This document shows, in pieces, positions 12,013 through 25,843 of a DNA stretch of 32,000 bases (positions are counted from its first letter, which is position 1; each line of letters starts with the position of its first letter). The DNA comes from Duganella rivi (lineage in GTDB: Bacteria; Pseudomonadota; Gammaproteobacteria; Burkholderiales; Burkholderiaceae_D), in contig NZ_WWCK01000006.1 of assembly GCF_009857435.1 (NCBI RefSeq), positions 237,029-269,028 of the forward strand, read 5' to 3'. Made by a program: the position numbers and the translations under genes. The notes below the pieces were generated by a model. The model saw only the letters and a program-made list of their open reading frames with translations, was not told where the DNA came from and did not search any database.

Positions 12013-13425
12013 ATGGGTGCATTCAAGGAGACAAAATTCCCGGCCGATGCACCGGCCGCACAAAAAGCCTTGGGCTGGGTGGATGACCGCTTCCCACTCA
12101 CCAAGCTGTGGAATGATCAATGGGGCAAATACTACGCCCCGAAAAACTTCAATTTCTGGTACATCTTCGGTTCGCTCGCCATGCTGGTGCTGGTGCTGCA
12201 AATCGTTACCGGCATCTTCCTGACCATGCACTACAAGCCGGACGCCAACCTGGCCTTCGGTTCGGTCGAATACATTATGCGCGAAGTACCGTGGGGCTGG
12301 CTGGTGCGCTATATGCACTCGACCGGCGCCTCGGCCTTCTTCATCATCGTCTACCTGCACATGACGCGCGGCCTGCTGTACGGCTCGTATCGCAAACCAC
12401 GCGAACTGATCTGGCTGTTCGGCTTTGCCATCTTCCTGTGCCTGATGGCCGAAGCGTTCTTCGGCTACCTGCTGCCTTGGGGCCAGATGTCGTACTGGGG
12501 CGCGCAGGTGATCGTCAACCTGTTTGGCGCGATTCCGCTGATCGGCCCTGACCTGTCGCTGTGGATCCGCGGCGACTACGTGGTGTCGGACGCCACCCTG
12601 AACCGCTTCTTCGCCTTCCACGTGATCGCGATTCCGCTGGTGCTGCTGGGCCTGGTGGCTGCGCACCTGATCGCGCTGCACGAAGTTGGTTCGAGCAACC
12701 CGGACGGCATCGAAGTCAAGGAAAACCTGGGCCCGGACGGCCACCCGGTCGACTCCATCCCATCGCATCCGTACTACACGGTGCACGACCTGTTTGGCGT
12801 GTCGGTATTCCTGACCATCTTCAGCGCGGTGGTGTTCTTCGCGCCGGAAATGGGCGGCTACTTCCTCGAGTACAACAACTTCCTGCCGGGCGACTCGCTG
12901 AAGACCCCGCTGCACATTGCGCCGACCTGGTACTTCACCGCGTTCTACTCGGTGCTGCGCGCCACCACCGCCGACTTCATGTGGGTGCTGATGTTCTTCG
13001 TGGCCGCCTACGTGGTGTTCATCTGGCTGAAATCGCGCCTGGCGACCGGCGTCAAGACCGTGATTGCCGTGATTGCGCTGGTGGCCATCGTCGGCATGCT
13101 GCCGCAGGTGCTGGATGCGAAATTCTGGGGCGTGGTGTTCTTCGGCTCCTCGGTGGTGATCCTGGCCTTCCTGCCTTGGCTCGATAAATCGCCGGTGAAA
13201 TCGATCCGCTACCGCCCGGACTGGCACAAATACGTGTACGCCGTGTTCTTCATCTCGTTCCTGACCCTTGGTTACCTCGGCACCTTGCCGCCGACCGAAG
13301 GCCGCACCATCGTGTCGCAAGTGTGCACCCTGCTGTACTTTAGCTTCTTCCTGTTCATGCCATGGTGGAGCGCCATGGGCACGTTCAAGAAGGTTCCAGA
13401 CCGCGTGGTCTACCACGGCCACTGA
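12013..13425 (+). CDS. petB: Cytochrome b (bc1 complex)
   Basis: 470 aa multi-TM protein starting 2 nt after petA. Conserved WNFGS-like FNFWYIFGS, the PWGQMSYWGA motif and haem-ligand His contexts are present. The 533-aa minus-strand ORF 11980-13581 is its shadow. Confidence 0.95.
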   Translation: MGAFKETKFPADAPAAQKALGWVDDRFPLTKLWNDQWGKYYAPKNFNFWYIFGSLAMLVLVLQIVTGIFLTMHYKPDANLAFGSVEYIMREVPWGWLVRYMHSTGASAFFIIVYLHMTRGLLYGSYRKPRELIWLFGFAIFLCLMAEAFFGYLLPWGQMSYWGAQVIVNLFGAIPLIGPDLSLWIRGDYVVSDATLNRFFAFHVIAIPLVLLGLVAAHLIALHEVGSSNPDGIEVKENLGPDGHPVDSIPSHPYYTVHDLFGVSVFLTIFSAVVFFAPEMGGYFLEYNNFLPGDSLKTPLHIAPTWYFTAFYSVLRATTADFMWVLMFFVAAYVVFIWLKSRLATGVKTVIAVIALVAIVGMLPQVLDAKFWGVVFFGSSVVILAFLPWLDKSPVKSIRYRPDWHKYVYAVFFISFLTLGYLGTLPPTEGRTIVSQVCTLLYFSFFLFMPWWSAMGTFKKVPDRVVYHGH

Positions 13426-13447
13426 TAAAGTACACAAAGGACAACAC

Positions 13448-14212
13448 ATGAACTTCCCGAAACGATTGCTTGCTATTTTGGCATTGTTACCCGGCCTGGC
13501 CTTGGCCAACGAGGGCGGAATCACCCTCGACAAGGCGCCGGATCGCTCAAATAACCTCGCAGCATTGCAGCATGGCGCCAAACTGTTCGTAAATTACTGC
13601 CTGAACTGTCATAATGCGTCCTCCATGCGCTACAACCGCCTGAAAGACCTGGGCTTGAGCGAGGAGCAGATCAAGGCCAACTTGCTGTTTACCGGTGATA
13701 AGGTCGGTGAAATGATGACCACCACCATGAATCCGAAAGATGCGAAAGCATGGTTCGGCGTGGTGCCGCCGGACTTGTCGGTGATCCAGCGCGCGAAAGC
13801 GTCTGGCGCCGGCAGCGGCAGTGATTACCTGTACACCTACCTGCGCAGCTTCTACAAGGACGACACCCGCCCAACCGGCTGGAATAATCGCCTGGTAGAA
13901 AACGTGGCCATGCCGCACGTGCTGTGGGAATTGCAAGGTGTACAACAAATCACCACCGAGGAAGTCGCCGATCCGCACGAGCACGGCAAAATGACGCATC
14001 AATTTGCTGGCTATAAGCAAGTGTCGGCAGGTAAACTAGACAAATTGGAATATGACACTGCCGTGGCCGACCTGGTCGGCTACATGGAGTGGATGGCGGA
14101 GCCTGCAGCGCAGACCCGCAAAAAACTGGGTGTCGCGGTGGTGCTGTTTATGACGCTGTTTGCCCTGCTGGCATGGCGCTTGAATGCGTCGTTCTGGAAA
14201 GAAGTGAAATAG
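13448..14212 (+). CDS. petC: Cytochrome c1
   Basis: Start set at ATG 13448 (AAGGA upstream), because the track start at 13268 overlaps petB. Has signal peptide MNFPKRLLAILALLPGLALA, haem motif CLNCH and a C-terminal TM anchor. Confidence 0.9.
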   Translation: MNFPKRLLAILALLPGLALANEGGITLDKAPDRSNNLAALQHGAKLFVNYCLNCHNASSMRYNRLKDLGLSEEQIKANLLFTGDKVGEMMTTTMNPKDAKAWFGVVPPDLSVIQRAKASGAGSGSDYLYTYLRSFYKDDTRPTGWNNRLVENVAMPHVLWELQGVQQITTEEVADPHEHGKMTHQFAGYKQVSAGKLDKLEYDTAVADLVGYMEWMAEPAAQTRKKLGVAVVLFMTLFALLAWRLNASFWKEVK

Positions 14213-14327: not shown

Positions 14328-14939
14328 ATGATGGTTCTCTACTCGGGTACGACCTGCCCATTCTCGCAACGCTGCCGTCTGGTCCTGTTTGAAAAAGGCA
14401 TGGACTTTGAAGTGCGCGATGTCGACTTGTTCAACAAGCCGGAAGATATCTCGACCATGAATCCGTATGGTCAGGTGCCGATCCTGGTGGAACGCGAATT
14501 GATCTTGTACGAATCGAACATCATCAATGAATACATCGACGAACGTTTCCCGCATCCGCAACTGATGCCGGCCGACCCGCTGATGCGCGCCCGCGCGCGC
14601 CTGATGCTGTTCAACTTTGAAAAAGAGCTGTTCGTCCACGTGCACACGCTGGAAAGCGAACGCGCCAAGGGCAACGACAAGAGCCACGACAAGGCCCGCG
14701 CAGAAATCCGCGACCGCCTGACCACGCTGGCGCCGCTGTTCCTGAAAAACAAATACATGCTGGGCGACGAGTTCTCGATGCTGGACGTGGCGGTAGCGCC
14801 GCTGCTGTGGCGTCTGGATCACTACGGCATCGAACTGTCGAAGACCGCCGCGCCGCTGATGAAGTACGCCGAGCGTATCTTCTCGCGTCCTGCGTACATC
14901 GAAGCGCTGACGCCGTCGGAAAAGGTGATGCGCCGTTAA
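14328..14939 (+). CDS. sspA: Stringent starvation protein A (GST-like)
   Basis: 203 aa. LYSGTTCPFSQRCRLVLFEKGMDFE..., VPILVERELILYESNIINEYIDERFPHPQLMP. Confidence 0.93.
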   Translation: MMVLYSGTTCPFSQRCRLVLFEKGMDFEVRDVDLFNKPEDISTMNPYGQVPILVERELILYESNIINEYIDERFPHPQLMPADPLMRARARLMLFNFEKELFVHVHTLESERAKGNDKSHDKARAEIRDRLTTLAPLFLKNKYMLGDEFSMLDVAVAPLLWRLDHYGIELSKTAAPLMKYAERIFSRPAYIEALTPSEKVMRR

Positions 14940-15017
14940 TGGTTCATTGAAGCACTACGGCGCGCTGGCTGGCACTTGCTGGCGGCGCGCCGTGTTTTAC
15001 CGCAGTCTGGAAGACCC

Positions 15018-15503
15018 ATGTCTGAAATCTCAACCAAGCCCTACCTGCTGCGCGCCATCTACGAGTGGTGCACGGACAGCGGCTACACTCCCTACCTCGC
15101 GGTCAAAGTCGACGCCAGCACCACGGTGCCGATGGAATACGTGAAAAAGGGCGAAATCGTGCTCAACATCAGCTTCGGCGCCACCTCGGGCCTGAAGATG
15201 GACAACGACAGCATCCGCTTCCACGCCCGCTTCGGCGGCGTTTCGCGCGAAATCTACATCCCGGTCAACAACGTGATGGCGATTTACGCCAATGAAAACG
15301 GCCAAGGCATGGCGTTTGAACCGCAGCTGGGCCAGCAGTCGGCGCCAGCGGAAGACGTGGTGGAAGACGCGCCAGCAGCACCGGTGTTGTCGGCCGTGCC
15401 GCCAGCGGTGAGCGAAGCCAAAACCGAAGCGCCGATTGTGCCGGGTGACGACACCGATCCCCCGAAAAAGGGCGGCCGCCCTACGCTGACCCGTATCAAA
15501 TAG
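15018..15503 (+). CDS. sspB: ClpXP specificity-enhancing factor SspB
   Basis: ATG at 15018 gives MSEISTKPYLLRAIYEWCTDSGYTPYLAV, a disordered Pro/Ala linker and a C-terminal GGRPTLTRIK ClpX-binding-type tail. Confidence 0.9.
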   Translation: MSEISTKPYLLRAIYEWCTDSGYTPYLAVKVDASTTVPMEYVKKGEIVLNISFGATSGLKMDNDSIRFHARFGGVSREIYIPVNNVMAIYANENGQGMAFEPQLGQQSAPAEDVVEDAPAAPVLSAVPPAVSEAKTEAPIVPGDDTDPPKKGGRPTLTRIK

Positions 15504-15529: not shown

Positions 15530-15605
<76 letters not shown>

Positions 15606-15621
15606 GTAAAATCAAGCACTT

Positions 15622-15650
15622 AGCCCAGCCCTCACCGGCTGGGCTTTTTG
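15622..15650 (+). terminator. Rho-independent terminator after tRNA-Thr (element-borne copy)
   Basis: AGCCCAGCC-ctcacc-GGCTGGGCT followed by TTTTT. A near-identical hairpin is repeated at 27721-27750. Confidence 0.75.
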
Positions 15651-15660
15651 TTATCTAACG

Positions 15661-15682
15661 CCATGTAGGCACTGTGTAGGCA
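15661..15682 (+). repeat. Two tandem 11-bp units CCATGTAGGCA/CTGTGTAGGCA (candidate integrase arm-type sites, P' side)
   Basis: The 23-bp string GCCATGTAGGCACTGTGTAGGCA (15660-15682) recurs exactly at 27513-27535. Confidence 0.55.
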
Positions 15683-15763
15683 TTTTGCTTCGCTATAGGT
15701 GTCGCGTTCCGTACACTTGATTAAACTTGATTTGACAATCGAATTAGCGTACCCTAACACGCT

Positions 15764-16885
15764 ATGCAAAAGACCTTACACAGCTCCACTATTAAAACTG
15801 CCCTTGCTGAGCTCGGATGGTCACAAAAAGAGCTGGCGGAACAGGTAGGGGTCACGGCTCAAGCAGTGACCAACTGGCTGAAGGGCAGTGACTTCCCTCG
15901 TCCGGACAAACTACTCAAGTTGGCAATGTTGCTCAAGCTTAGCTTCGCCGAGCTGGTTGCCCCGGAGGCAAACGCGCCTGTTGTGGCCTTTCGAAAAAAA
16001 GCCGGGGCCAAAACGACAGATGCACATCGCCTAAAAGCTATGGCAATGGGCACAATGCTGAAGCCGCTTGTTGAGTATCTGCCAAAGCTAAGAGCTCTGC
16101 GCACAAAGATTAATAATCCTTCCTTAGAGTACCGTTCGCTGCAGAATGCCGTTAAAGCGGTCAGAGAAAAGCTTGGTATTGGAATGCAGGCGCCATTGCG
16201 CTATCAACACATAATCGGCGAATTTGCAGCAAACGATGCGATTCTTGTGCCTGTACTTTGGGGCCAAAAATTGCGGCATGAAAATGCTTTGCACATCCTC
16301 CTGCCTGAAGAGCAGGTGACATTTATATTTTTGAATCTCGATACGCATATTGAGGATTTCAAATTCTGGATGTCTCATGAATTGGCTCACGTCTACACTC
16401 CGGAACTTGCTGGCACGGATGCGGGAGAGGATTTTGCCGATGCTTTCTCCGCAGCGTTTCTCTTCCCGGAAGACGTCGCAAGTATTGCGTACAGCGACGC
16501 TATAAAAAAGCAGACTCAACACAGCGAACTTGGTGTGCTGCAGCGATATGCAGCAGAGCATTCAATCTCAATATTTACTGTTTATTGTGAGATTGAAAAA
16601 TACGCTGTAGCAAAAGGTCTACCAAAGTTAAGGACTCAAGAGCAGCAATTACACGCTGTACGGACAGTAACGCGGGGCGAGCTCGTTAGTGAAATCTTAT
16701 TTAAACCACTCCCTCCTGAGCCAAGCGCATTAATTGCTTCCGCGCATTCTGTTTTCCAATCGCAATTCTTTGACGCGATGCGTCGTATGTTGCGGGAAAA
16801 AGGAACCGGTCCCGGCTATCTCCAGCAAGTCCTAGATGTAAGTATTCATGATGGGGCGGCACTTCATTCAGAGTTGCTCCATTGA
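15764..16885 (+). CDS. Fusion protein: XRE-family HTH + ImmA/IrrE (COG2856, M78-type) zinc metallopeptidase + uncharacterised C-terminal domain
   Basis: 373 aa with HTH LGWSQKELAEQVGVTAQAVTNWLKG, HExxH as WMSHELAHVY, and the downstream family signature EDFADAFSAAFLFPED. AT-richer than flanking DNA. Confidence 0.85.
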   Translation: MQKTLHSSTIKTALAELGWSQKELAEQVGVTAQAVTNWLKGSDFPRPDKLLKLAMLLKLSFAELVAPEANAPVVAFRKKAGAKTTDAHRLKAMAMGTMLKPLVEYLPKLRALRTKINNPSLEYRSLQNAVKAVREKLGIGMQAPLRYQHIIGEFAANDAILVPVLWGQKLRHENALHILLPEEQVTFIFLNLDTHIEDFKFWMSHELAHVYTPELAGTDAGEDFADAFSAAFLFPEDVASIAYSDAIKKQTQHSELGVLQRYAAEHSISIFTVYCEIEKYAVAKGLPKLRTQEQQLHAVRTVTRGELVSEILFKPLPPEPSALIASAHSVFQSQFFDAMRRMLREKGTGPGYLQQVLDVSIHDGAALHSELLH

Positions 16886-17472
16886 CACTTGTTCTGTTAG
16901 ATACGAACGCTTATCTCCGCCTAGCCAAACGAGTGGTTCCGATGCTGGGAGTGCCGTTTGGTCAGAAAAAATATGTCCTTACGATTCTGAAGGACGTGGA
17001 AGACGAAGTGCACCGCAGCGCCACCTTACGGGCCAAATTCCCTTGGTTTGATGGGGATAATTTCTCAGCCGAGCGTTTGGCCAAGCAGGTGCGTCTTAAG
17101 CCGGAAGAACGTGCTCAACTTAATTCGGCTTCCAGTGTCTTACACGGGTGGGTTTTAAGAGATATCCAGAGCTACATGACCAATGGGCGCTCCCCACCGT
17201 CTGAAACGGATTGCTTTATATTGGCTTTCGGGCAAGTACGAGCTGCAATAGTCGTCACAGATGACTTAGGGATGCATAAGCTTGCAAGCGATTTCGGAAT
17301 CGATGTGTGGCATGGTTATGAACTTGTTTCCAAAATGTTAAGCGCAAAAATGCTGACGAAGGAACAGGTTCGTGAAATAGTCGAGGCGATTGAGCGAAAT
17401 GGCGATGCAACTGCAACGTGGATTGCGTCCAAACATACGACTTTCGTCAAGATTTTCGGTGTAAAAGAATAA
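16882..17472 (+). CDS. PIN-domain nuclease-like protein (DUF4411-like as I recall)
   Basis: 196 aa. The TTG start overlaps the upstream TGA (ATTGA). Acidic PIN positions appear in canonical order: LLDTNAYL, DVEDEV, SETDCFILA, VVTDDLG. The next in-frame Met would delete the first motif, which supports the TTG start. Confidence 0.75.
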   Translation: MTLVLLDTNAYLRLAKRVVPMLGVPFGQKKYVLTILKDVEDEVHRSATLRAKFPWFDGDNFSAERLAKQVRLKPEERAQLNSASSVLHGWVLRDIQSYMTNGRSPPSETDCFILAFGQVRAAIVVTDDLGMHKLASDFGIDVWHGYELVSKMLSAKMLTKEQVREIVEAIERNGDATATWIASKHTTFVKIFGVKE

Positions 17473-17495
17473 CAGGCCGGAAATGGCATCACTGG

Positions 17496-18062
17496 CTAGG
17501 CGCTTTGCAAAACACTCAATACGCTTGCGCGCGATATTCCAAACTGACGCCCCAAAGCGCTGACACTTTCGCCAGTCGCGTACTTTGCTACAATTTCCAC
17601 GCGCTGCTCGGCCGTCGTCTTAGCCGGGCGGCCCAGCGTTTTGCCTTCGCTCTTAGCGCGAGCGAGACCAGCTTGCGTCCGTTCCACCAACAAATCACGC
17701 TCCATCTCTGCCACAGCAGCCAGCATGGTCAGCATCATCTTGCCGGCCGGCGAGGTCAGGTCTAGTTTGCCCAGCTGGAGCACGATGACGGCAATCTTGC
17801 GGCTCGCCAGCAGCTTCACCGTGGCGCCGACGTCCTGCGCATCGCGACCCAGACGATCCAGCTTCGCCACCACCAGCGTTTCCCCATTCCGAATCTGACC
17901 GAGCAGCGCGGCGAACTGCGGGCGCTGCGTCGCACTGGTCTTGCCGCTGATGGTGTCGGAAAACCAGAAGTCCACCTGATGGCCGGCCGCTTGAATCTCA
18001 ATGCGCTGATTGTCAGCGCTCTGTTCGGTAGTGCTGACGCGGCCGTATGCAAAGGTTGCCAT
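17496..18062 (-). CDS. Small serine recombinase (resolvase/invertase family)
   Basis: Start set at ATG 18062 (GGAGAG upstream). MATFAYGRVSTTEQSADNQ carries the catalytic Ser motif, followed by LVVAKLDRLGRD and a C-terminal HTH (GESVSALGRQFGISRASV). 188 aa. Confidence 0.9.
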   Translation of the reverse strand: MATFAYGRVSTTEQSADNQRIEIQAAGHQVDFWFSDTISGKTSATQRPQFAALLGQIRNGETLVVAKLDRLGRDAQDVGATVKLLASRKIAVIVLQLGKLDLTSPAGKMMLTMLAAVAEMERDLLVERTQAGLARAKSEGKTLGRPAKTTAEQRVEIVAKYATGESVSALGRQFGISRASVLSVLQSA

Positions 18063-18082
18063 GGTGTCTCTCCGGTTAAGAC

Positions 18083-18195
18083 TGTTAGAAAACACTGTTA
18101 GAATATATTCACCTGTTAGGAATTGCAAGGGATATATTTCCAACATGGCGAATGCTTCCCTTTCATGGATGTTAGAAATCGTTCGTTTTCTAACA
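18083..18195. promoter_or_regulatory. res-like recombinase binding region: 26-bp dyad plus three direct half-sites
   Basis: Dyad TGTTAGAAATCG-TT-CGTTTTCTAACA at 18170-18195 has 12+2+12 geometry with one mismatch. Direct TGTTAGRA half-sites start at 18083, 18096 and 18114. All lie in the divergent intergenic region immediately upstream of the recombinase gene. Confidence 0.6.
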
Positions 18196-18281
18196 CCGGT
18201 GATATTGCAGAAAAAATCATGTATGCTGGAAACACCAAACGCATTGAAACTTCGACGTTATAACCAGCACAGGAGGCAACT

Positions 18282-18572
18282 ATGGGTGGTGCGAAACGGA
18301 TGATGGAGGAAGAAGAGTCAAAGCGCCAAGTCGCTTTGGGAATTGCTATCGAAGCCGGCGTTTTAGAGCAATGCCCTAGTCACGACGACTGCGTGTATCT
18401 CGGTGGTGAGGAAATCGAAAGCGCTTATAAGCTTGCGAATTACAAAGTTTCGCATGGTGAGCTCGCAGACGTCTTCGACGACCGGCGAGAGATGACAGAC
18501 ATCATCAAGGCAGTAGTCGACGATAACTCTGCCGATGAATGTTACGCGTGCACGAAGAATTGGAAAGAATAG
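18282..18572 (+). CDS. Hypothetical acidic 96-aa protein with split Cys4 pattern
   Basis: Strong RBS (AGGAGG 7 nt upstream of the ATG). Cys pattern is CPSHDDC ... CYAC. About 22 Asp/Glu against about 11 Lys/Arg. No family recognised. Confidence 0.7.
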   Translation: MGGAKRMMEEEESKRQVALGIAIEAGVLEQCPSHDDCVYLGGEEIESAYKLANYKVSHGELADVFDDRREMTDIIKAVVDDNSADECYACTKNWKE

Positions 18573-18670
18573 AAGGGCTACGCGTTTCGAAGGGGATAGC
18601 GTTTCGCCCCCCTTGTCAGAACAATAAGGGAGTGCTCTTTTGCCACCCCCTTTGTCTTCCAGCGCCAGCA

Positions 18671-19072
18671 CTATGCTGGCACCGCCGCGTGCGGGAACCA
18701 CCGCGCGATGTTCGCCCGCTCGGCGGTCACCACTTTTTCCAGCATCTGCTGCAGCCGGTCTAGCTGGCCCACCATGTCTACGAGGCAGGCGGCCGGGTCG
18801 TGCAGTACCAGCCAGATTTCCGGGTCTGCTACGTTGAACTCCAGCTGCAGGCCGACTGGTGACGCCAACGGCGGCCGGTCAGGTTCACGCGCGGCGGCGA
18901 TGCGGGCTGCCTGTTCCAGCTCGGGCCGCACCTGGTCGAACAGTTCCACCACCGTGGCGCCGCTGGCCAGCAGATGGCGCACATGGCACCACACCTTCAA
19001 CCGGTCGCCCGCCCGCGCAATGCTCGTGCGCCACTCCAGCACCGGCGCGTCACTCTTCCGCGCGCGGCTCAC
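18671..19072 (-). CDS. Hypothetical protein (133 aa), third gene of a coupled triplet
   Basis: GTG start overlaps the upstream stop (GTGA). GC3-rich codon pattern. No motif recognised. Confidence 0.6.
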   Translation of the reverse strand: MSRARKSDAPVLEWRTSIARAGDRLKVWCHVRHLLASGATVVELFDQVRPELEQAARIAAAREPDRPPLASPVGLQLEFNVADPEIWLVLHDPAACLVDMVGQLDRLQQMLEKVVTAERANIARWFPHAAVPA

Positions 19073-19293
19073 TTCACACCTCCGTGGTCGCTCACAAGCT
19101 TTATGCGGCCAGGCGACGTCGGCGCGCTCTCGAGCGGGAACATCTTGGCGACCATGTTGGCGAAGTCAATGATGTCGGAGCGCCAGTAAGGCGCCGTGGC
19201 ACGGTAGCGTTGCAACAGCTTGTTCTCGTCGGCGGTCAGCGTGAGCGGCACCAGTGCGAGGGCGGCGGCCTCTTCCTTCGATGGCGGTTTCAT
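19069..19293 (-). CDS. Hypothetical protein (74 aa), second gene of a coupled triplet
   Basis: ATGA overlap with the upstream gene and GTGA overlap with the downstream gene. No motif recognised. Confidence 0.55.
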   Translation of the reverse strand: MKPPSKEEAAALALVPLTLTADENKLLQRYRATAPYWRSDIIDFANMVAKMFPLESAPTSPGRIKLVSDHGGVK

Positions 19294-19601
19294 ACGGCAA
19301 CTGCGCTTTCTGCCTGCGCGCGGCGCCAGATGGCGTGGCCTTCCGCTTGGCCGGCATAGTAGGCGTCATCCTCGGCGGTGGCCGGGTCGTACAGCTTGGG
19401 AATGCGGCGGCCCTCGATGCGGAACTTCAGCGCCGCCAGCACGCCGTGCTTGTACGCCGGGCTGCGCGGGTCGCGCGGCACACAAAAGGCGGCGGCGAAC
19501 AGTTCGTCAGCAGTGGCGCTGGCGGCTGGCGCGGACAGTGAGTTAATGGTGGGGAATTGCGATTGCGCCGTGCTGGCGCTGGGCGTGGTGGTGCCTGGCA
19601 T
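19290..19601 (-). CDS. Hypothetical protein (103 aa), first gene of a coupled triplet
   Basis: Start set at ATG 19601 with GGAGG 9 nt upstream. The track start at 19634 lacks an RBS. Ser/Thr/Ala-rich N-terminus followed by a conserved-looking core (FCVPRDPRSPAYKHGVLAALKFRIEG). Confidence 0.6.
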   Translation of the reverse strand: MPGTTTPSASTAQSQFPTINSLSAPAASATADELFAAAFCVPRDPRSPAYKHGVLAALKFRIEGRRIPKLYDPATAEDDAYYAGQAEGHAIWRRAQAESAVAV

Positions 19602-19759
19602 GTTGTAGCCTCCAATGTCGGTGATGAACCGCATCCCACGCTCTCAAACGTGGGGGAGCAGCAAGTGACAGGGTTGAGAGACCGGTGACATAGGAAACCG
19701 GCAGGCCGAAGCCTCCCTGCCACCGCTTGCTCATTGAAGGGCGAACGGAGGCACACGCG

Positions 19760-19781
19760 AAAAAAAAACGGCTTGCGCCGT
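19760..19781 (-). terminator. Rho-independent terminator downstream of the FRG gene
   Basis: Minus strand reads ACGGC-GCAA-GCCGT followed by nine T. It lies about 90 nt after the FRG gene stop. Confidence 0.65.
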
Positions 19782-19868
19782 CTGTGCGCCCATGTCTTTT
19801 CTGGCTCTCACCCCAGACACCGTCTTTGTCCGGTGCTTTTTTAGAATAGGCCAGTGCAACCGTTTGCG

Positions 19869-20774
19869 TCAAGAGGTTTTACGTTTGTAAGGTGTTGCGC
19901 TTGGGGTTTGTGCACTCGCCATTCGTTGAGGGTTGAAGCTCAATACAGACTGTTTATCTTGGAATTTTCCTCGCACCGCAAAACGATTCGGCTCTCTGCT
20001 GCTATCTTCGTAAGAAAGGATTTTTTTCGGAGGGTTTTGGAGATGTCTAGCCACCATATCTTCGAAAGCTTTCTTGCATACAGCTTCGACCGATGGCATT
20101 AGCTGAATGGCAGAAATGCCCATCAAACTTAATTCCCGCATCACCACTGGCCGAAGCTCGGAGGGGATTTCGTATTTGGTTAAATACTTTGTAGCGTCAG
20201 TTTCGTTAGCTCGGATATGCGCCTCGATGTCTACTACATTTGACCAAGTGAAACAGCCCTGCTGTGCAGCTAGCTTGTGATTGCCGATTATTCGGGGGCG
20301 AAGCATCGATACGTTAGGTCTTTCATCTGCGACGTCCTTGCTTTGCGGCTTATCGCGTACCCAAGCCTCCTCGTCAAAACAGTAAATCGCGACGTTCTCG
20401 CTCTGGACGGAAAAACTATCTACCCCCTCAAAGGCGAAATACGCAGCGATGAAGGGGGACGAACTCCAATCCAAAATTGGTGTGGGGAACCCATTGTGCT
20501 GAAGGAAAGCCAGAAATTCCGCTAAGCCTAATTCGCTGGATAGATCCCAACTTTTCCCAGTCCATGCCTCGACCGCCTCTTGTACTTGAGGTAAGACTTG
20601 GTTGATATAGACCAGCATGTCGCCGACATTCCGAACGAAAGGGGTTCGGTGTAGCGCTGATGTTAAGGACCAAGTTGCGTTTCTCTGTCCGCGATAGACC
20701 ATATTGCGTCGCGTGCGAATGTGCTCGCCTACCAGCGCCTTGTACTGTTCCCAAGAAATTAGATTCATACCCAC
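19869..20774 (-). CDS. FRG-domain protein
   Basis: 301 aa (GTG 20774; alternative ATG 20768). FRG signatures: VYRGQRNATWSLTSALHR, LQHNGFPTPILDWSSSPFIAAYFA, NHKLAAQQGCFTW. Visibly AT-richer than the neighbouring backbone. Confidence 0.85.
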   Translation of the reverse strand: MGMNLISWEQYKALVGEHIRTRRNMVYRGQRNATWSLTSALHRTPFVRNVGDMLVYINQVLPQVQEAVEAWTGKSWDLSSELGLAEFLAFLQHNGFPTPILDWSSSPFIAAYFAFEGVDSFSVQSENVAIYCFDEEAWVRDKPQSKDVADERPNVSMLRPRIIGNHKLAAQQGCFTWSNVVDIEAHIRANETDATKYLTKYEIPSELRPVVMRELSLMGISAIQLMPSVEAVCKKAFEDMVARHLQNPPKKILSYEDSSREPNRFAVRGKFQDKQSVLSFNPQRMASAQTPSATPYKRKTS

Positions 20775-21250
20775 TCGCCTAGTTTTTCGTCAGTATGTCC
20801 ATATAGTGGAGCTCAAGCAAGTGGGGCAGACTGGGCGAGTGACGCCCCGAAAATTTGGGCCATGCCGCTGACGCCGGAAAAATTTCCGGGGTCGTCGGCG
20901 GGTGTCGTTCCTCCGAACGATACCGATATCCCGGTTTGCACCATACCCAAGGTAAGTCGCAGATTTGCAAGGGACGAATAGTCCCCTACAAGCTGCCCAC
21001 TTTCCGGGTTATTACCAACGCACGCTCAACACCTGTTGAGCAGCCGTTCAACGCTCGTTGCCACTTGCTTGATATCGGATAGGAACCGGCTGGGTTTCCG
21101 TTGGAGCTCCCACGCCTTACCAGATGAGCAATTAATGGCGGAGTTCATGTGTTGCGCACTGCCGAAATTTTTCAATCAAAATCAAGTTTTGCAGTTATGT
21201 CAACTAATGTTGTTTTACATTAGTCTCACTACTACTCAAGGAGCTAAATC

Positions 21251-21427
21251 ATGAAGATTAAATTTTTTATGCAAGCCGATGCTGGTCATGGAAAGTACCC
21301 AAGTCCAGTGATGACATGCATCTATCCCGACGGTGCGGCGCACGCATTGGAGGACGCAATCCGTCAGATAAGTGAGTTTTGGGGGAGTGACTGGTACAAG
21401 CAAGGCGTGCAGTACGCAGTGAATTAG
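21251..21427 (+). CDS. Unannotated small ORF (58 aa), hypothetical
   Basis: Below the 60-aa track cutoff. ATG is preceded by AAGGAG (7-nt spacer). Translation: MKIKFFMQADAGHGKYPSPVMTCIYPDGAAHALEDAIRQISEFWGSDWYKQGVQYAVN. A GGGCTTCGAAGCCC hairpin follows. Confidence 0.5.
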   Translation: MKIKFFMQADAGHGKYPSPVMTCIYPDGAAHALEDAIRQISEFWGSDWYKQGVQYAVN

Positions 21428-21734
21428 ATGCAGCGAAGGCCCATCGAAGGGGCTTGCAAGGGGGCTTCGAAGCCCTTCGGGCGCCATGACCTGCAACGCG
21501 TTGCAGGCGTTGCAGGCGCATTTCAGGTGCGTGTCGTCGGGACAGGCGCGACTTGTCCTGAGGGACAGCGCGGGAAAGGTATGGGGACGGGCGGCGATGA
21601 TGCTCCTGAAAATTTAGGAGCGCGCCGCCGGCGTCGATATGGGATTTTCCATATCGGGATTTCTTCTCTAATTCGGGGCGATGCAGGATTTCCCGCATCG
21701 GTAGCGAGCATGTGACGGAGGCAACCAGCGCCAG

Positions 21735-21941
21735 CTATTCGTCCCAGTTCAGCGGCCCAGGCGGCCGATACAGCATCGGGGGCTCGTTGCCACCACAGAA
21801 ATACCGCTGCTTGGTACCGGCATTGGCCGGACGCATGACGGCCACGCCGCGAGAACGGGTGATGGCGAGTGGCAGCAGTGGCGCATCGGTGAAAAAATCA
21901 TCGGTGAGAAGGTGCGGGAGTTGGGCGGCGGCAGCAGTCAT
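21735..21941 (-). CDS. Hypothetical protein (68 aa)
   Basis: ATG 21941 has GAGG upstream, and GC3 is better than in the overlapping + strand ORF. No motif recognised. Confidence 0.4.
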   Translation of the reverse strand: MTAAAAQLPHLLTDDFFTDAPLLPLAITRSRGVAVMRPANAGTKQRYFCGGNEPPMLYRPPGPLNWDE

Positions 21942-22169
21942 GGCCTCTAATCTTAGCACGCTCAGCTGCGTACCTTGATGCGTACCTACTACGGATAAGA
22001 ATGATCAATTTCTTCGGGAAATCAAGGCATTAACTGCGCACAAATAGGTGAATCTCCCTGTGAAATAAGGGTAAACACGATTGGTACTCAGCAGGAGTTG
22101 TGAAGCGATATAAACGGATAACGCTATATCCAAGTATCGGCCCCTGCGGCCTTCACCTAGGAGTTTCTT

Positions 22170-22340
22170 ATGCGTTCTATCATTCGTGTCGTTTCTATCT
22201 TGTTCTTGGTCCGTGTTCTGGTGGGTAGCGTCACCATGCCCGGCCTGCACGGCTCGCAGACCATCGCGCCGTGTTACGCTCGCCCGGAGCATACCGTCAA
22301 TGCTCACTGGTCTCGCGCGCCGCTTGCTCCAGCACCTTGA
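22170..22340 (+). CDS. Unannotated small ORF (56 aa) with hydrophobic N-terminus
   Basis: TAGGAG lies 7 nt upstream of the ATG. Translation: MRSIIRVVSILFLVRVLVGSVTMPGLHGSQTIAPCYARPEHTVNAHWSRAPLAPAP. Its 3' end overlaps the convergent DUF2280 gene by 44 nt. Confidence 0.3.
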   Translation: MRSIIRVVSILFLVRVLVGSVTMPGLHGSQTIAPCYARPEHTVNAHWSRAPLAPAP

Positions 22341-22656
22341 TGGCCAGCGGTAGGTTGCCGGCCGCCTCGGCGCGGTCGGCCATGCGCTGCAGCAGTATCA
22401 GGCGGTAAGAGCGGCAGGCGATGGGGATGTTCTCCATTTCGGCCAGTAGTTTGGCTCGCGTCTCGTAGAACATCTCCCGCCAGTGCGCGCCCAGCTTGGC
22501 GCCGGCCCGGCGCTCAGGGTGCCACGCCTCGATGCGCTGGCGCGTCAGCACCAAGCCAAAATTTACTTTGACGGAGGCGGCCACCTGCTCAGGGGTGTCA
22601 AAGCACGCGAGCCCTTGCAGGATATGGATTGCGACGGGGGTAGGTAAGTGAGCCAT
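22297..22656 (-). CDS. DUF2280-like phage protein (small-terminase-associated family, as I recall)
   Basis: 119 aa. The pattern IHILQGLACFDTPEQVAASVKVNFGLVLTRQRIEAWHP...RAGAKLGAHWREMFYETR...IPIACRSYRLILLQRMADRAEAAGN matches my memory of DUF2280 proteins encoded next to phage terminase genes. Confidence 0.65.
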   Translation of the reverse strand: MAHLPTPVAIHILQGLACFDTPEQVAASVKVNFGLVLTRQRIEAWHPERRAGAKLGAHWREMFYETRAKLLAEMENIPIACRSYRLILLQRMADRAEAAGNLPLAIKVLEQAARETSEH

Positions 22657-22686
22657 GGTGTCGTTTTTGTCAAACCAGGTAAAGGC

Positions 22687-23010
22687 TCAGGGCGCGGACG
22701 AGCGCTCATCGCCAGCAGTCAGCAGCATGCCGTCCAGCTCGATGATGTCGGCGGCCTGCAGGTGGCCGCGCTGCTTGGCGCAGGCCTTGGCCAGTTCGCG
22801 CAGGGCGGCCAACTCCTTGCGCTTGAGCTCGGTCAGCTGGCGGCCGGCCTCGTTCTGCTGGATGACGCGCTGCAAGCACCAGCCGTCATCGCCACCCGCG
22901 CGCAGCTGGGCATCGATGCGGCGCTTTTCCTTGCCCACGGCCAGGCGGCGGGCGTGGGCGGTGTGCCAGCGCAATGCGGCGGCGGTCAGTTCTTTGTCGT
23001 TCATGTTCAC
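22687..23010 (-). CDS. Hypothetical protein (107 aa)
   Basis: Good GC3 pattern and lies in the same-strand gene train. No motif recognised. Confidence 0.55.
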   Translation of the reverse strand: MNMNDKELTAAALRWHTAHARRLAVGKEKRRIDAQLRAGGDDGWCLQRVIQQNEAGRQLTELKRKELAALRELAKACAKQRGHLQAADIIELDGMLLTAGDERSSAP

Positions 23011-23117
23011 CTCCGTTTACCCAGCAAGGCCCGAAACTGCGCCGTGGTGACGCGATTAGGCCTCGTCTAGTGGGGTAGCCTAGCCAAGCAGCGCCAGCCG
23101 CTCAGTGGGCCGATTTC

Positions 23118-23729
23118 TCAATCCTTGATGGTGCCGCCGGTTTTGAAGTAGGCGGCGCGGTCGGGGTGCGGCATCTGCTCCAGCTGGGCTCGGGTGATGA
23201 CCTTGGCGCCTGCGTTTTGCGCGGTCGGTGCAGGTGCGGGCTTGCTGGCGCCATCAATGACCGTGCCGCCGCTGCGGACGTGCTGGGCGCGTTCTTGTGG
23301 ACTCATCGCATCAAACTGCTGACGGGTTGCCGTGCGGCCGGCGCCGGGCTGGCCGGCGGGCGACGCGGCCCCTGCTTTCTTCGTAATCATGTCGCGGTTG
23401 GGGTATGCCGCCACCAGCTGTTCAATCGCTTCATCCAGATTCGCCAGTTCACCAGGACGGCGATGGCTGTACATCGGCACGCCTCCGGCGCCGTACGCCA
23501 CCAACTGGCCTTTTTCCAAACGCAGCCCACCGCCAAACGCCGAGGCGGCCACCTCGGATGGGATGTTGAGGTTGTCGGCGACATACTTCGATGCGGCAAA
23601 GGCCTGATTGCGCACCATCGTCATGGCGGCGCCGGCGTCGAATGCGATTTCAGTGCCGTCGTCCAGCTTGTACAGGGGATGGCCGTTTTTCAGGATCACA
23701 TTGCCATTGGAGTCGAGTTTGATCTTCAT
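23118..23729 (-). CDS. Hypothetical phage-type protein (203 aa); N-terminus resembles phage scaffold-like proteins; C-terminal internal duplication
   Basis: MKIKLDSNGNVILKNGHPLYKLDDGTEIAFDAGAA resembles N-termini of podophage scaffold-type proteins as I recall. The two C-terminal repeats are TRQQFDAMSPQERAQHVRSGGTVID and TRAQLEQMPHPDRAAYFKTGGTIKD. Confidence 0.6.
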   Translation of the reverse strand: MKIKLDSNGNVILKNGHPLYKLDDGTEIAFDAGAAMTMVRNQAFAASKYVADNLNIPSEVAASAFGGGLRLEKGQLVAYGAGGVPMYSHRRPGELANLDEAIEQLVAAYPNRDMITKKAGAASPAGQPGAGRTATRQQFDAMSPQERAQHVRSGGTVIDGASKPAPAPTAQNAGAKVITRAQLEQMPHPDRAAYFKTGGTIKD

Positions 23730-23795
23730 GGGGTCTTGCCTTTCAGTTCAGGTTCCGGGTACCGCCCGGCCGGTTGTTTGGTCTTCGGTGGCGCA

Positions 23796-24149
23796 CTACC
23801 GACGAAAAACGTCGTCAGTCAGCGGCGGAGGTGGCACGCGCTGGGGCGGGCCGGTGGCGGGCACGAACTCGCCGCGGTCGCTGCACCAGGTCGCGGCCGG
23901 GAGGTCGTTGTCTCGCTGACGCTGGTAGTCGCCGGCAAAGGCCTGGCGGGCAGGCTTGCCGACGGGCTGGTGGCGGCGCGCGCCATTCCCCACTGGGGGA
24001 TGGGCCGAGGTGTCGGAAAGATTTCCGGCACCTGCCGGTGTCGAATTGGCGCGCGAGCACTGAGCCGAGTTTTTGGCCGAGTGCTGGTGCGGGTCGGTGC
24101 GCGGGGTGTCCAAAATATTTTGGATGCCCTGCGCTATGCCAGACGCCAC
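23796..24149 (-). CDS. Hypothetical protein (117 aa)
   Basis: This is the best GC3 frame among several overlapping ORFs. It overlaps the upstream gene by 16 nt. The start is uncertain. Confidence 0.4.
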   Translation of the reverse strand: MASGIAQGIQNILDTPRTDPHQHSAKNSAQCSRANSTPAGAGNLSDTSAHPPVGNGARRHQPVGKPARQAFAGDYQRQRDNDLPAATWCSDRGEFVPATGPPQRVPPPPLTDDVFRR

Positions 24150-24397
24150 ATGCGCGTGCCGAAGCCGGAATGCTGGTGCTCACCGAACACGCGGTCAACC
24201 AGCAGGCCCTTGCGCACCAACGCGGAGAGGCAGGCATTCGCGCCGCCGGCGGCGCAGATCCCGCGCGCGGTGTTCCAGCCGCCCAGTTCTTTGACGGCAC
24301 CGAGGGTACGGATTTGCGCGGCGGTCAGGGGCAAATTTTTATCCTCGGTCAGCGGTTGTCCAATCCCGTCCGTGTGAAATACTGGTTTCGTGTTCAT
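24134..24397 (-). CDS. Small winged-helix-like DNA-binding protein (87 aa)
   Basis: LTAAQIRTLGAVKELGG...ACLSALVRKGLLVDR resembles a MarR/wHTH recognition region. It lies about 100 bp downstream of the iteron array. Confidence 0.6.
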   Translation of the reverse strand: MNTKPVFHTDGIGQPLTEDKNLPLTAAQIRTLGAVKELGGWNTARGICAAGGANACLSALVRKGLLVDRVFGEHQHSGFGTRMWRLA

Positions 24398-24498
24398 TGC
24401 ATGGTGGCTTTCTGCCCTTCGGGCGTTTGTGATTAAGGTCGGGTTCGGCGTTGCCGTCGGCGTGAAAACTGCGCATGCAGATGGCTTCTCTAGATGGT

Positions 24499-24625
24499 CA
24501 CCGTGAGACGGTGTAGAGAGATGGGTAAAAACAGGCCTGATTGCACCGTGAGACGGTGTAGTGGGCGAGGTCTCTACACCGTGAGACGGTGCAATAGGAG
24601 GCCTCTCTACACCGTGAGACGGTCT
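24499..24625. repeat. Iteron/operator array: four direct copies of the palindromic core ACCGT-GAG-ACGGT
   Basis: Cores are at 24500-24512, 24545-24557, 24578-24590 and 24611-24623, giving spacings of 45, 33 and 33 bp. Copies 1-2 extend rightward (GTAGAG) and copies 3-4 extend leftward (CTCTAC), which are halves of a 25-bp palindrome CTCTACACCGTGAGACGGTGTAGAG. Confidence 0.85.
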
Positions 24626-24632
24626 AAGGACG

Positions 24633-25052
24633 TTAATTTTTCCTGAGCTGTTTTTGAAGGTAGGCGCCGCGCTCGAAAGCCGCTGCTACGCCGGCGTCGT
24701 AGCCGTCGATTTTGTCCAGCGTGCGCCAGGTGACCGCGTACCAGCCGGCCTTGTTCGGGCGTTGGCCCTTCGCTGTCTCGAAGATAAATCCGGCTTCCAG
24801 CAGCTCCCGCTTCGCTCGGGTGATGACATCGTTGCTAGTCCAGCCTCGTGATGCGAGGTAGGCGGCCGAAGCGAGCAAACGGCCGTTGTTGTCGCGCACG
24901 AACTGACGAGCGAACTCCATCAGTAGGCTGCGCGCTGGATGCGAAAGACGGGCATAGGCGGGGCAGTCGAGAACAGACCAAGGCAACGCTACGAAGCCGC
25001 CGCCGTCGCGCCCTGAGTCGCCTTTCTTGCGGTTGCTGCGGTCAATACCCAT
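24633..25052 (-). CDS. Winged-helix protein of island Rep/regulator type (139 aa)
   Basis: GGAGG RBS. FVALPWSVLDCPAYARLSHPARSLLMEFARQF...NNGRLLASAAYLASRGWTSNDVITRAKRELLEAGFI...RPNKAGWYAVTW. I recall this pattern from small replication/regulatory proteins of tRNA-linked islands. The stop lies 10 bp from iteron 4. Confidence 0.65.
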   Translation of the reverse strand: MGIDRSNRKKGDSGRDGGGFVALPWSVLDCPAYARLSHPARSLLMEFARQFVRDNNGRLLASAAYLASRGWTSNDVITRAKRELLEAGFIFETAKGQRPNKAGWYAVTWRTLDKIDGYDAGVAAAFERGAYLQKQLRKN

Positions 25053-25160
25053 TCAGCCTCCGCATCCTTTCAGGCAAGCGGAAACCAGCACCAGCACAGC
25101 GGGAGATGGCGGCGGTACCTGGCGCAGCGTGGCCGCGCGCAGGCTATGGATGGTCATCAT
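25053..25160 (-). CDS. Possible 35-aa bridging ORF
   Basis: Its ATG overlaps the upstream TGA (ATGA), and its TGA directly abuts the next ATG (TGAATG). Translation: MMTIHSLRAATLRQVPPPSPAVLVLVSACLKGCGG. Below the track cutoff. Confidence 0.3.
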   Translation of the reverse strand: MMTIHSLRAATLRQVPPPSPAVLVLVSACLKGCGG

Positions 25161-25561
25161 TCGCCGTCCTTTCGCTCGCGCATGCGAAGCCACCCCATCA
25201 CAGCGCGGCGGCCGGCCTCGGTCAGACTGTAAATGCCGCGTTTGATTCTGCGGCCGTCGCGGTCGGTATCATCGATCATCGTGCAAGGCAGGCCACTCTT
25301 GCCGAGGCCGAGCTCGCGAATGTTCAGAATCGCATCTGGTGTATTGGCGCAGCCGATGGTGTCGTCGAGGTGCTTGCGCGACATTGGGCGAATTAACAGC
25401 GCGTGGAGGGCGCGCAAATAGCGCGGATTGGCAGTGCCGAAAAATCGAGCAACAGTTGATGTAGAATCTGGAATTGGAACTGTGTTGCCGAAGAGGTCTG
25501 GGATTGCTTGGTCGCGCCCGGGCCCTTTCTTTTTTTGGGGCTTCCTTATCGGCCGCTTCAT
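25157..25561 (-). CDS. Hypothetical basic wHTH-like protein (134 aa)
   Basis: Start set at ATG 25561, which overlaps the upstream TAA (TAATG). Has a Lys/Arg-rich N-terminus (MKRPIRKPQKKKGPG). The track extension to 25831 overlaps the AlpA-like gene in another frame and reads as Cys/Arg-rich nonsense. Confidence 0.6.
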   Translation of the reverse strand: MKRPIRKPQKKKGPGRDQAIPDLFGNTVPIPDSTSTVARFFGTANPRYLRALHALLIRPMSRKHLDDTIGCANTPDAILNIRELGLGKSGLPCTMIDDTDRDGRRIKRGIYSLTEAGRRAVMGWLRMRERKDGE

Positions 25562-25794
25562 TACGCACCTCCGACCATCGCTTCTGCAGTAGCCATCACC
25601 GGCCACAGCAAAAACTTGCCGCGCTTGATTGGGCGCACCCCGCAGCACTCCCCCTTCAGGCAGTGATTCTTGCGTACCGTTTGCGGCGCCAGGCACCACG
25701 CACGTGCAAATTCGTCGGTGGTGATGTGGTCGCGTCCTTGGGCCACAGCGGCCAGAGCCGCAGGCACGTGGACATTGTTGGCATTCATATGCAT
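25561..25794 (-). CDS. AlpA/excisionase-type HTH protein (77 aa)
   Basis: ITTDEFARAWCLAPQTVRKNHCLKGECCGVRPIKRGKFLLWP fits the excisionase/HTH_17 pattern (HTH followed by a basic wing and a W/F). It is the first gene of the leftward operon next to int. Confidence 0.6.
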   Translation of the reverse strand: MHMNANNVHVPAALAAVAQGRDHITTDEFARAWCLAPQTVRKNHCLKGECCGVRPIKRGKFLLWPVMATAEAMVGGA

Positions 25795-25807
25795 ATCGTT
25801 CTTTCAT

Positions 25808-25843
25808 AAAAAAAGCCCGCCTCCAGGTCATGGATAGCGGGCT
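25808..25843 (-). terminator. Intrinsic terminator T1 (minus strand)
   Basis: AGCCCGC (16-nt loop) GCGGGCT followed on the minus strand by seven T. It ends 14 nt upstream of the AlpA-like ATG. Confidence 0.6.

Follow-up and report, generated by a model that had tools for sequence, protein, structure and literature searches.

A putative RosmerTA-type toxin-antitoxin module with a PIN-fold partner on a tRNA-Thr island of Duganella rivi

Introduction

The two genes described here, named A and B, lie next to each other in a stretch of 32,000 nucleotides (nt) from Duganella rivi (contig NZ_WWCK01000006.1, positions 237,029 to 269,028 of the forward strand). This whole stretch is called the window, and coordinates refer to it unless another sequence is named. 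Gene A encodes one polypeptide with an XRE-type helix-turn-helix (HTH) domain, an M78 zinc-peptidase core and a helical C-terminal domain, and gene B encodes a PIN-like protein; together with the short region upstream of A they are referred to as the cassette. An earlier note on this DNA, written without database searches, had suggested a toxin or defence module. Both open reading frames (ORFs) and all motifs that it quoted for the two proteins are present as described there, and the results reported below make it probable that the pair is a toxin-antitoxin (TA) module of the RosmerTA type.

The features of the cassette and of its surroundings are listed in Table 1. Related loci were collected by a scan of one genome per species, which gave 80 loci with a relative of B. 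In 74 of these at least 1,150 nt of upstream sequence are available, so that the presence of A could be assessed, and all counts out of 74 refer to these loci.

Table 1. Features of the A-B cassette, its upstream region and the surrounding island in the window
Feature	Position	Strand	Basis and remarks
tRNA-Thr (TGT), integration target	15530-15605	+	ARAGORN, Rfam; the 3' 47 nt (15559-15605) are the attL copy of the direct repeat
tRNA terminator hairpin AGCCCAGCC...GGCTGGGCT with T-run	15622-15650	+	terminator scan, inverted repeat; duplicated at the far island end
Tandem direct repeat ACTTGAT-TAA-ACTTGAT	15715-15731	+	10-nt period; candidate operator for the HTH domain of A, overlaps the -35
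Putative A-B promoter	15727-15760	+	-35 TTGATT (15727-15732) or TTGACA (15732-15737); -10-like TACCCT (15750-15755) or TAACAC (15755-15760)
Gene A	15764-16885	+	ATG start, 373 aa; single-chain XRE-HTH / M78 zinc-peptidase / helical C-terminal domain; RmrA-like putative antitoxin-repressor
XRE-type HTH domain of A (aa 10-64)	15791-15955	+	HTH_3, PDB profile matches, Foldseek
Conserved HTH-peptidase linker of A, PVVAFRKKAGAKTT (aa 72-85)	15977-16018	+	residue conservation, modelled beta-strand
M78/ImmA-IrrE zinc-peptidase core of A (aa 159-255)	16238-16528	+	Peptidase_M78, invariant residues
All-helical C-terminal domain of A (aa 256-373)	16529-16882	+	AlphaFold2 model; specific to the A family
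Gene B	16882-17472	+	TTG start, 196 aa; PIN-like nuclease, candidate toxin; D7, E40/E42, D110, D127/D128
Serine recombinase/resolvase	17496-18146	-	island cargo; immediately downstream of the cassette, convergent
Lambda ea8.5-like protein	18282-18572	+	PF20735; island cargo
C4 antisense RNA (RF01695)	19650-19738	-	Rfam, 53.5 bits (gathering score 45)
FRG-domain protein	19869-20774	-	also phrog_4962; island cargo
phrog_546 protein	22297-22656	-	island cargo
P4-type tyrosine integrase	26182-27591	-	Arm-DNA-bind_3 and Phage_integrase, phrog_1; context, outside the cassette
attR: copy of the tRNA 3' half (27666-27712) and terminator hairpin (27720-27748)	27666-27748	+	exact 32-nt match, alignment

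Gene A: a single-chain XRE-M78 protein

The HTH sequence LGWSQKELAEQVGVTAQAVTNWLKG covers amino acids (aa) 17-41 of A and lies within the Pfam match to HTH_3 (E 7e-12). Profile searches against the PDB connect this domain with the HTH domains of ImmR, HipB and the 434 repressor, and many XRE HTH structures were retrieved by Foldseek with the N-terminus of A (template modelling (TM) score up to 0.86). The HELAH motif of the peptidase core corresponds to H205-E-L-A-H209 (nt 16376-16390). The third zinc ligand, E222 (16427-16429), belongs to EDFADAFSAAFLFPED (aa 222-237) and is located inside the E-x-x-A-D-x-F...L-F-P motif that is typical of M78 peptidases. The Pfam model Peptidase_M78 (PF06114) matches aa 184-252 with an E value of 4.8e-5 and with 23.6 bits, which is marginally above the gathering score of 22. 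With this score, the HExxH motif and the downstream Glu ligand, A is assigned to peptidase family M78 (COG2856). It is also matched by phrog_2439 (E 2e-21).

The AlphaFold2 (AF2) model of A, built on 38 homologues, is confident throughout, with a predicted local distance difference test score (pLDDT) of 89.4 and a predicted TM score (pTM) of 0.80. With the core of the model, Foldseek retrieved the IrrE crystal structures 3dti and 3dte at a probability of 1.00 over 171-176 aligned columns. The architecture of an XRE HTH, a zinc peptidase and an additional C-terminal domain, as proposed in the earlier note, is therefore borne out by HTH_3, Peptidase_M78 and the structural match to IrrE. The residues H205, E206, H209, E222 and D226 are invariant in the 38 database homologues as well as in 74/74 genomic loci. 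Because the zinc site is complete and invariant in both sets, the protease appears to be under selection as an enzyme. A reading of A as a degenerate or pseudo-protease was considered and is ruled out by the invariant zinc ligands and catalytic Glu.

RmrA is the zinc-peptidase antitoxin of the RosmerTA systems. PADLOC contains 14 RmrA profiles, for which no curated cut-off is given, that match A at E < 1e-3; the best of them, PDLC03949, aligns aa 6-237 of A with positions 3-229 of its 363 (E 1.3e-16). A weak similarity to the capH/capP profiles of PADLOC was found as well. RosmerTA is a class with both TA and anti-phage function, and with the match to RmrA the idea of a toxin or defence module holds.

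The C-terminal domain is modelled with a pLDDT of about 88-97. Neither the PDB nor the viral structure library offered a convincing structural match to it. It lies outside every RmrA profile alignment, all of which end at about aa 237-256, and is kept in recognisably homologous form upstream of B relatives of 28-35% identity. A homology search with this domain alone returned 4 short fragments from 8 candidates, as it offers too few word-index seeds.

The linker between HTH domain and peptidase is strongly conserved, with P72, A75, K78, K83 and T84 invariant and F76, R77 and T85 conserved to at least 90%. The sequence VAFRK is retained in homologues at 35-39% identity, and residues 73-78 form a beta-strand in the AF2 model. 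It is speculative to regard P72...VAFRK...KTT85 as a candidate self-cleavage or pseudo-substrate segment.

Gene B: a PIN-fold protein outside the curated families

The stop codon of A and the start codon of B overlap by 4 nt within cATTGAc, which contains the TTG start. The motifs LLDTNAYL (D7), DVEDEV (E40/E42), SETDCFILA (D110) and VVTDDLG (D127/D128) had led to the proposal that B is a PIN protein. The sequence scores are weak. DUF4411 (PF14367) reaches 15.0 bits (E 0.022) in a partial match to aa 78-129, which is short of the gathering score of 23.5 and leaves B outside this family, and PIN_5 is likewise below threshold (E 0.026).

The AlphaFold model of B has a pLDDT of 84.5 and a pTM of 0.79, and the top 50 Foldseek matches in the PDB are all PIN proteins (TMt up to 0.66). 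The best match is VapC Rv0301 (E 3.7e-4, TMt 0.65); VapC11, FitB, HARP RNase P, SMG6 and Nmd4 are among the others. A profile made from the deep alignment of the B family matches VapC6 (2lcq, E 1e-4) and HARP sequences. In this alignment, which reaches down to 24% identity, D7, P20, W55, D110, D127 and D128 are invariant and E42 is nearly so, and the acidic residues are kept in 74/74 loci. Because of the model, the family profile and the invariant acidic residues, the PIN assignment can be regarded as settled despite the weak sequence scores: as far as a predicted structure allows, B is confirmed as a member of the PIN superfamily with the conserved acidic set.

Within the B family 13 of 59 members match PIN_5, 8 match PIN and 5 match DUF4411 (E < 0.01 for DUF4411). 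Judged from these profiles, B belongs to an uncurated PIN-like family between the three models, which would be related to DUF4411 yet not a member of it as currently defined. An exhaustive profile search yielded only 378 representatives of the family after clustering at the 50% level. In the model, B exceeds the length of a typical VapC by about 60 aa, with an insertion at aa ~45-105 and a helical extension at the C-terminus.

The identical Duganella rivi protein is called by NCBI with 176 aa, starting at the internal Met21. This call removes D7 together with the N-terminal segment LVLLDTNAYLRLAKR in which it lies (affected stretch 16882-16941). Most homologues are annotated at 196-200 aa. Since LVLLDTNAYLRLAKR is invariant across the family, the longer ORF with the TTG start is probably the correct one, and the shorter call looks like a miscall of the start codon owing to TTG.

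Strict linkage and mobility of the pair

A full-length homologue of A (aa 1 to ~371, 53-66% identity) is located directly upstream of B on the same strand in 74/74 loci. The earlier note had named a survey of gene neighbourhoods as a test in which unlinked homologues would speak against its proposal; no such homologues were met. Even B relatives at 28-35% identity are preceded by an A relative at about 35% identity, and over the range of 28-39% identity the two stay together. Each of the two genes is represented by about 1,200 clustered proteins. Because the linkage is complete across species, the pairing is far beyond chance, and the pair is an autonomous two-gene module.

The proposed translational coupling is also seen in the relatives. 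A 4-nt overlap as in the window is present in 63/74 junctions (with a TTG start in 58 and GTG in 5), and four more overlap by 1 nt. Altogether 67/74 junctions overlap, and the remaining 7 have gaps of 4-13 nt.

Gene order and start codon bear on the question which of the two proteins is the toxin. It is conceivable that the roles are reversed or shared, with the M78 protease protein as toxic or effector part and the PIN-like protein as its modulator. COG2856 was listed as a possible toxin by Makarova 2009, and in the PD-lambda-2 system, which was tested by Vassallo 2022, the Xre-peptidase (PD-lambda-2B) is toxic alone and rescued by its HigB-like partner. For A and B we consider this very improbable. 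All PIN catalytic residues of B are conserved in 74/74 loci, and a protein that only modulates its partner would not be expected to keep them. A design with the antitoxin first and little toxin agrees with the gene order and with the weak TTG from which B starts, and RmrA acts as the antitoxin in RosmerTA systems.

Unrelated sequences flank the cassette, as 50 groups were needed for the 61 upstream flanks and 42 for the 59 downstream ones. Adjacency to a tRNA was considered as a general property of the cassette and rejected, as a nearby tRNA was found in 1/44 loci. In another lineage the cassette is the terminal cargo of a small integrase/excisionase/Phage_GPA element. Elsewhere its neighbour is the gene of a 941-aa AAA_15/AAA_21 ATPase, at a site downstream of gyrB where 16 kb of sequence show no integrase.

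The latter arrangement was observed in metagenomic Pseudomonas-like contigs (our loci L081-L086, locus coordinates 3820-6645), in which the cassette lies beside the 941-aa ATPase gene in a hotspot downstream of dnaN-recF-gyrB. In sibling contigs the ATPase gene is replaced or interrupted by insertion sequence elements or split genes. This site looks like a variable defence hotspot.

Of 5,426 complete E. coli genomes, 54 encode a homologous cassette (39% and 30% identity), the proteins of which are WP_001172094.1 and WP_001136617.1. One copy is found on a chromosome of sequence type 131 (NZ_CP051609.1, 3105182-3124875), in an integrative element at uvrA-ssb. This element, which is inserted between ssb and the downstream genes, has two tyrosine recombinases and two hypothetical genes. 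The cassette is followed there by a short HTH gene and by a restriction-modification system of type I that is interleaved with genes for a RecQ-family helicase and DprA. An identical segment is also carried by the conjugative IncF plasmid NZ_OX030731.1.

From these contexts it could be argued that the cassette is mainly an addiction module of integrative elements that plays no part in phage defence. Cells that lose the island would no longer make A and would be killed by the PIN toxin as the more stable of the two proteins (post-segregational killing). The cassette is indeed the terminal cargo of integrase-bearing elements in the window, in the integrase/excisionase/Phage_GPA elements and in E. 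coli, and it has the classic layout of a TA operon with predicted autoregulation. We regard this explanation as possible but rather unlikely, as the cassette also occurs beside the large AAA ATPase gene downstream of gyrB where no integrase is visible, its neighbours are often defence genes, the tested RosmerTA systems defend against phages, and plain addiction needs no invariant, intact protease domain. Addiction and phage defence are not mutually exclusive.

A conserved candidate operator and promoter

The tandem repeat ACTTGAT-N3-ACTTGAT is present with at most two substitutions upstream of A in 74/74 loci, in surroundings that cannot be aligned. It sits 29-35 nt before the ATG of A. The 8-mers AACTTGAT and ACTTGATT occur in 71/74 upstream regions versus 0/73 downstream controls. 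The motif is also conserved upstream of the E. coli homologue, the protein of which shares 39% identity, and it occurs once in the window, at the promoter of A itself.

The second copy of ACTTGAT holds the -35-like TTGATT. At a spacer of 16-17 nt a -10-like hexamer (at least 4 of 6 positions) is found in 73/74 loci, and its end lies 6-10 nt ahead of the ATG. A Shine-Dalgarno-like motif ahead of A was found in 0/74 loci. The promoter is called on this comparative evidence. Because of the missing Shine-Dalgarno motif the A-B mRNA is presumably leaderless or nearly so. The simplest reading of the region is a leaderless or near-leaderless operon with its -35 covered by the predicted binding site of its own HTH protein, and the conserved repeat together with the promoter points to autorepression.

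We also considered the repeat as a set of integrase arm sites of the island, which is ruled out as it moves with the cassette into unrelated contexts. Another direct repeat in tandem, TGTAGGCA(CTG)/TGTAGGCA(TTT) with a period of 11 nt, was noticed on the plus strand at 15664-15685, in the gap that separates the tRNA terminator from the promoter of the cassette. This one shows no conservation ahead of A in other loci and may be part of the island, e.g. as integrase arm-type sites, rather than of the cassette. A structured RNA or an RNA antitoxin in the cassette is not supported, as the Rfam search found only the tRNA there.

The combination of HTH and M78 domains is a hallmark of switches of the ImmR/ImmA, IrrE/DdrO and CapH/CapP kinds, and A could accordingly be thought of as a master switch of the island or of a downstream effector, with B as an induced effector nuclease instead of a toxin neutralised by contact. 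The conserved candidate operator overlaps the promoter that drives B, as such a switch would have it, and the island holds other phage-type regulatory parts, including the C4 antisense RNA. This explanation appears unlikely to us. The single occurrence of the operator motif leaves no visible regulon in the island, and A and B travel together into unrelated contexts, so that A serves no particular element. B is translated together with A from one mRNA, and repression alone cannot separate their synthesis. Furthermore, the large partner-specific C-terminal domain of A co-occurs with B at all depths, and the deletion of RmrA is lethal in tested systems, which implies direct neutralisation.

The tRNA-Thr island

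The alignment of the island ends shows 47 nt of identity over the 3' part of the tRNA and the repeated hairpin. The two ends differ by an indel of 8 nt, with GTAAAATC only at the left end. The island extends from 15606 to 27712 (about 12.1 kb), and its P4-type integrase is found at the opposite end from the intact tRNA. The first cargo is the cassette, in which A starts 158 nt downstream of the end of the tRNA gene. The position directly inside attL that had been claimed for it is confirmed by the tRNA-Thr repeat at 27666-27748 beside the integrase. The cassette had also been described as AT-rich, in agreement with a guanine-plus-cytosine content of 0.47 over 16.0-17.5 kb versus about 0.55-0.65 in the flanks.

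Besides the cargo genes in Table 1 the island contains several ORFs without a family match, e.g. 23166-24377 (403 aa). C4 antisense RNAs are immunity RNAs of the P1/P7 type. The one found here is located just upstream (in minus orientation) of a 114-aa ORF (19290-19634) without a Pfam or PHROG match. The presence of the C4 RNA inside the island suggests that a control module for immunity or antirepression, derived from a phage, has been kept there.

Upstream of the tRNA the translated ORFs presumably encode a cytochrome b-like protein (12013-13425), a cytochrome c1-like protein (13268-14212), a GST/SspA-like protein (14328-14939) and an SspB-like protein (14976-15503). If these readings are right, the island is inserted just after a petABC-sspAB region.

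Proposed function and mechanism

The gene structure, the folds, the intact active sites, the strict linkage, the conserved operator/promoter and the mobility of the pair form the basis of its interpretation. We put the probability at roughly 0.6 that A and B constitute a horizontally mobile TA module of the RosmerTA type, in which B is a PIN toxin and A is antitoxin and autorepressor with a protease switch. Abortive infection or phage defence is the most likely role of the pair, and the carrier island would incidentally gain an addiction module from it. The strict linkage and the defence-type neighbourhoods lend indirect support to a RosmerTA function.

In such a module B would be a PIN-fold nuclease, most likely a ribonuclease (RNase) of the VapC/HARP kind, which is toxic when free. 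The XRE HTH of A would bind ACTTGAT-N3-ACTTGAT over the -35 and repress the leaderless A-B transcript. B would be translated by coupling from the weak TTG inside the stop of A, which would keep the toxin below the antitoxin. The helical C-terminal domain that is specific to the A family, possibly with the N-lobe, would keep the PIN protein inactive. Upon infection or a stress cue the M78 domain might cut A itself or the A-B complex, or remodel it, and the nuclease would be freed.

As the RmrA alignments stop short of the C-terminal domain and as this domain co-occurs with B at every depth, it is the likeliest toxin-binding part of A. The earlier note had considered it as the signal-sensing part; the data fit a partner-specific, toxin-binding domain at least as well. 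In a mirror-tree analysis every domain of A co-varies with B (r 0.77-0.84).

A more detailed version of the protease switch can be put forward tentatively, and we rather doubt it. In this version A is a LexA-like sense-cut-release device. A cue would induce self-cleavage by the M78 domain, in cis or within a dimer, at the linker P72-V-V-A-F-R-K...K-T-T85, and by this single cut the operon would be derepressed and the PIN RNase, which the C-terminal domain holds, would be released or activated. If this is true, it would be the first mechanism for the protease in RosmerTA-type antitoxins, and it would involve recognition of a direct-repeat (head-to-tail) operator by an XRE domain.

Several points weigh against the interpretation of the pair as a RosmerTA-type module. 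The toxicity and nuclease activity of B, its neutralisation by A, the DNA binding and the anti-phage activity are all predictions, as are the gating by the protease, its role, substrate and trigger in the proposed mechanism, and a sensing of DNA damage or single-stranded DNA. No model of Pfam or NCBIfam matches B above threshold and nothing was found in PHROGs. In PADLOC B has no match at E <= 1 and hence no RmrT model, and among the members of the B family 0/59 match the RmrT models of these profiles. The partial correlations with B are 0.39 for the N-lobe, 0.32 for the C-terminal domain, 0.24 for the HTH and 0.21 for the M78 core, by which the C-terminal domain is not singled out. Concerning the regulation, XRE dimers usually bind inverted rather than direct repeats, the -10 of the window promoter scores only 3/6, and a generic sigma-70 scan called no promoter upstream of A in the window. 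A tblastn search revealed no homologue of the cassette in 50,697 phage records, and a single, distant one was found among 72,556 plasmids. Finally, the toxin of one tested RosmerTA-like system is held in check partly by ClpP, and for this reason simple sequestration may not suffice.

Comparison with known systems

VapBC and FitAB share with A-B a PIN toxin with the acidic quartet, which also provides the best structural matches of B, coupled downstream of a DNA-binding antitoxin that regulates itself, as is predicted for A. The antitoxins VapB and FitA have about 70-90 aa, are of the RHH, AbrB or Phd type and bind the toxin with a disordered tail. A differs from them by its 373 aa, its XRE HTH, its intact metallopeptidase and its folded, helical C-terminal domain. 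A canonical VapBC operon has a small antitoxin of the RHH, AbrB, Phd or MerR type upstream of the toxin gene, and an XRE-M78 protein is found in this place here. The general features of type II TA operons, i.e. linkage, overlap, a conserved candidate operator, unrelated flanks and a patchy spread, are all present, and autoregulation is probable.

ImmR/ImmA of ICEBs1, DdrO/IrrE of Deinococcus and CapH/CapP of CBASS contain the same XRE HTH and M78 families as A. Their common logic is the signal-dependent proteolytic inactivation of a repressor. These switches consist of two proteins and govern a regulon or a neighbouring system. In A both domains are on one chain, the candidate operator is found at its own promoter only, and a nuclease is linked. 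We found no separate small XRE gene beside A in the window, where the neighbours are the tRNA and the resolvase. Moreover, the C-terminal domain of IrrE is GAF-like and that of A is all-helical.

RosmerTA was reported as an anti-phage TA system by Millman 2022, where the antitoxin could not be deleted, and a phage-encoded member was validated by Ernits 2023. For the ImmA/Rosmer antitoxin node the latter work also noted HTH domains at the N-terminus as well as partners of the PIN-like kind, and it proposed a regulation by cleavage of the HTH. The characterised RmrT of Gordonia phage Kita is a membrane-depolarising protein and not a nuclease. The gene rmrA was found to be essential in three Pectobacteriaceae strains, and RmrT-type toxins have been linked to ClpX and ClpP becoming essential.

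The pairing itself was already noticed in genome comparisons. In Makarova 2009, 60 COG2856-PIN gene pairs were counted, the fused Xre-COG2856 protein was described as often preceding PIN or RelE toxins, and COG2856 was labelled 'T - predicted Zn-dependent protease'. In Matelska 2017, DUF4411 (DUF4411.1), COG2405, PIN_14, PIN_20 and PIN_26 were found downstream of HTH-DUF955 fusions. With these papers and Ernits 2023, the novelty implied for a fused HTH-COG2856 protein next to a PIN protein cannot be upheld. The view that the arrangement had not been studied does not apply to the class, as RosmerTA has been shown to act as TA and anti-phage system. It stands only for the PIN-partnered subtype, on a member of which we found no experiment in the literature.

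The locus therefore opens no new category, since Xre-HTH/M78 antitoxins with swappable toxins are already recognised as RosmerTA. A-B is an uncatalogued addition to this RosmerTA-like class, the architecture of which is known and predicted and the class itself validated. It defines a coherent and strictly linked subfamily, the PIN toxin of which has no model in Pfam, NCBIfam or PADLOC. Because B matches no RmrT profile, automated tools would see an orphan RmrA here; defence finders will report this or nothing. The corrected start of B restores the catalytic Asp that was dropped by the NCBI call. What is new, as far as the sequence comparison points to it, is the conserved tandem ACTTGAT repeat with a leaderless promoter at the A-B operon. 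Such a clean, conserved candidate operator and promoter opens the regulatory side of the system to direct tests, and the homologue native to E. coli is suited to the class-wide question what the invariant protease domain senses and cuts.

The predicted three-component TA systems of Xre-COG2856 (DUF955) and a PIN-like protein have exactly the architecture of A-B, including a single-domain PIN-like gene with at least four conserved acidic residues. Among the PIN-like families listed for these systems, DUF4411 was compared by profile, and B is below its gathering score. RosmerTA differs from A-B in two respects, as B is outside the RmrT profiles of PADLOC, so that no adjacent gene with an RmrT profile is present, and the C-terminal 120 aa of A are specific to the A family. 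In common with A-B, RosmerTA consists of two genes, has an antitoxin with a zinc-peptidase of the ImmA/IrrE type and often an N-terminal HTH, is carried by mobile elements, and as a class makes use of interchangeable and unrelated toxins.

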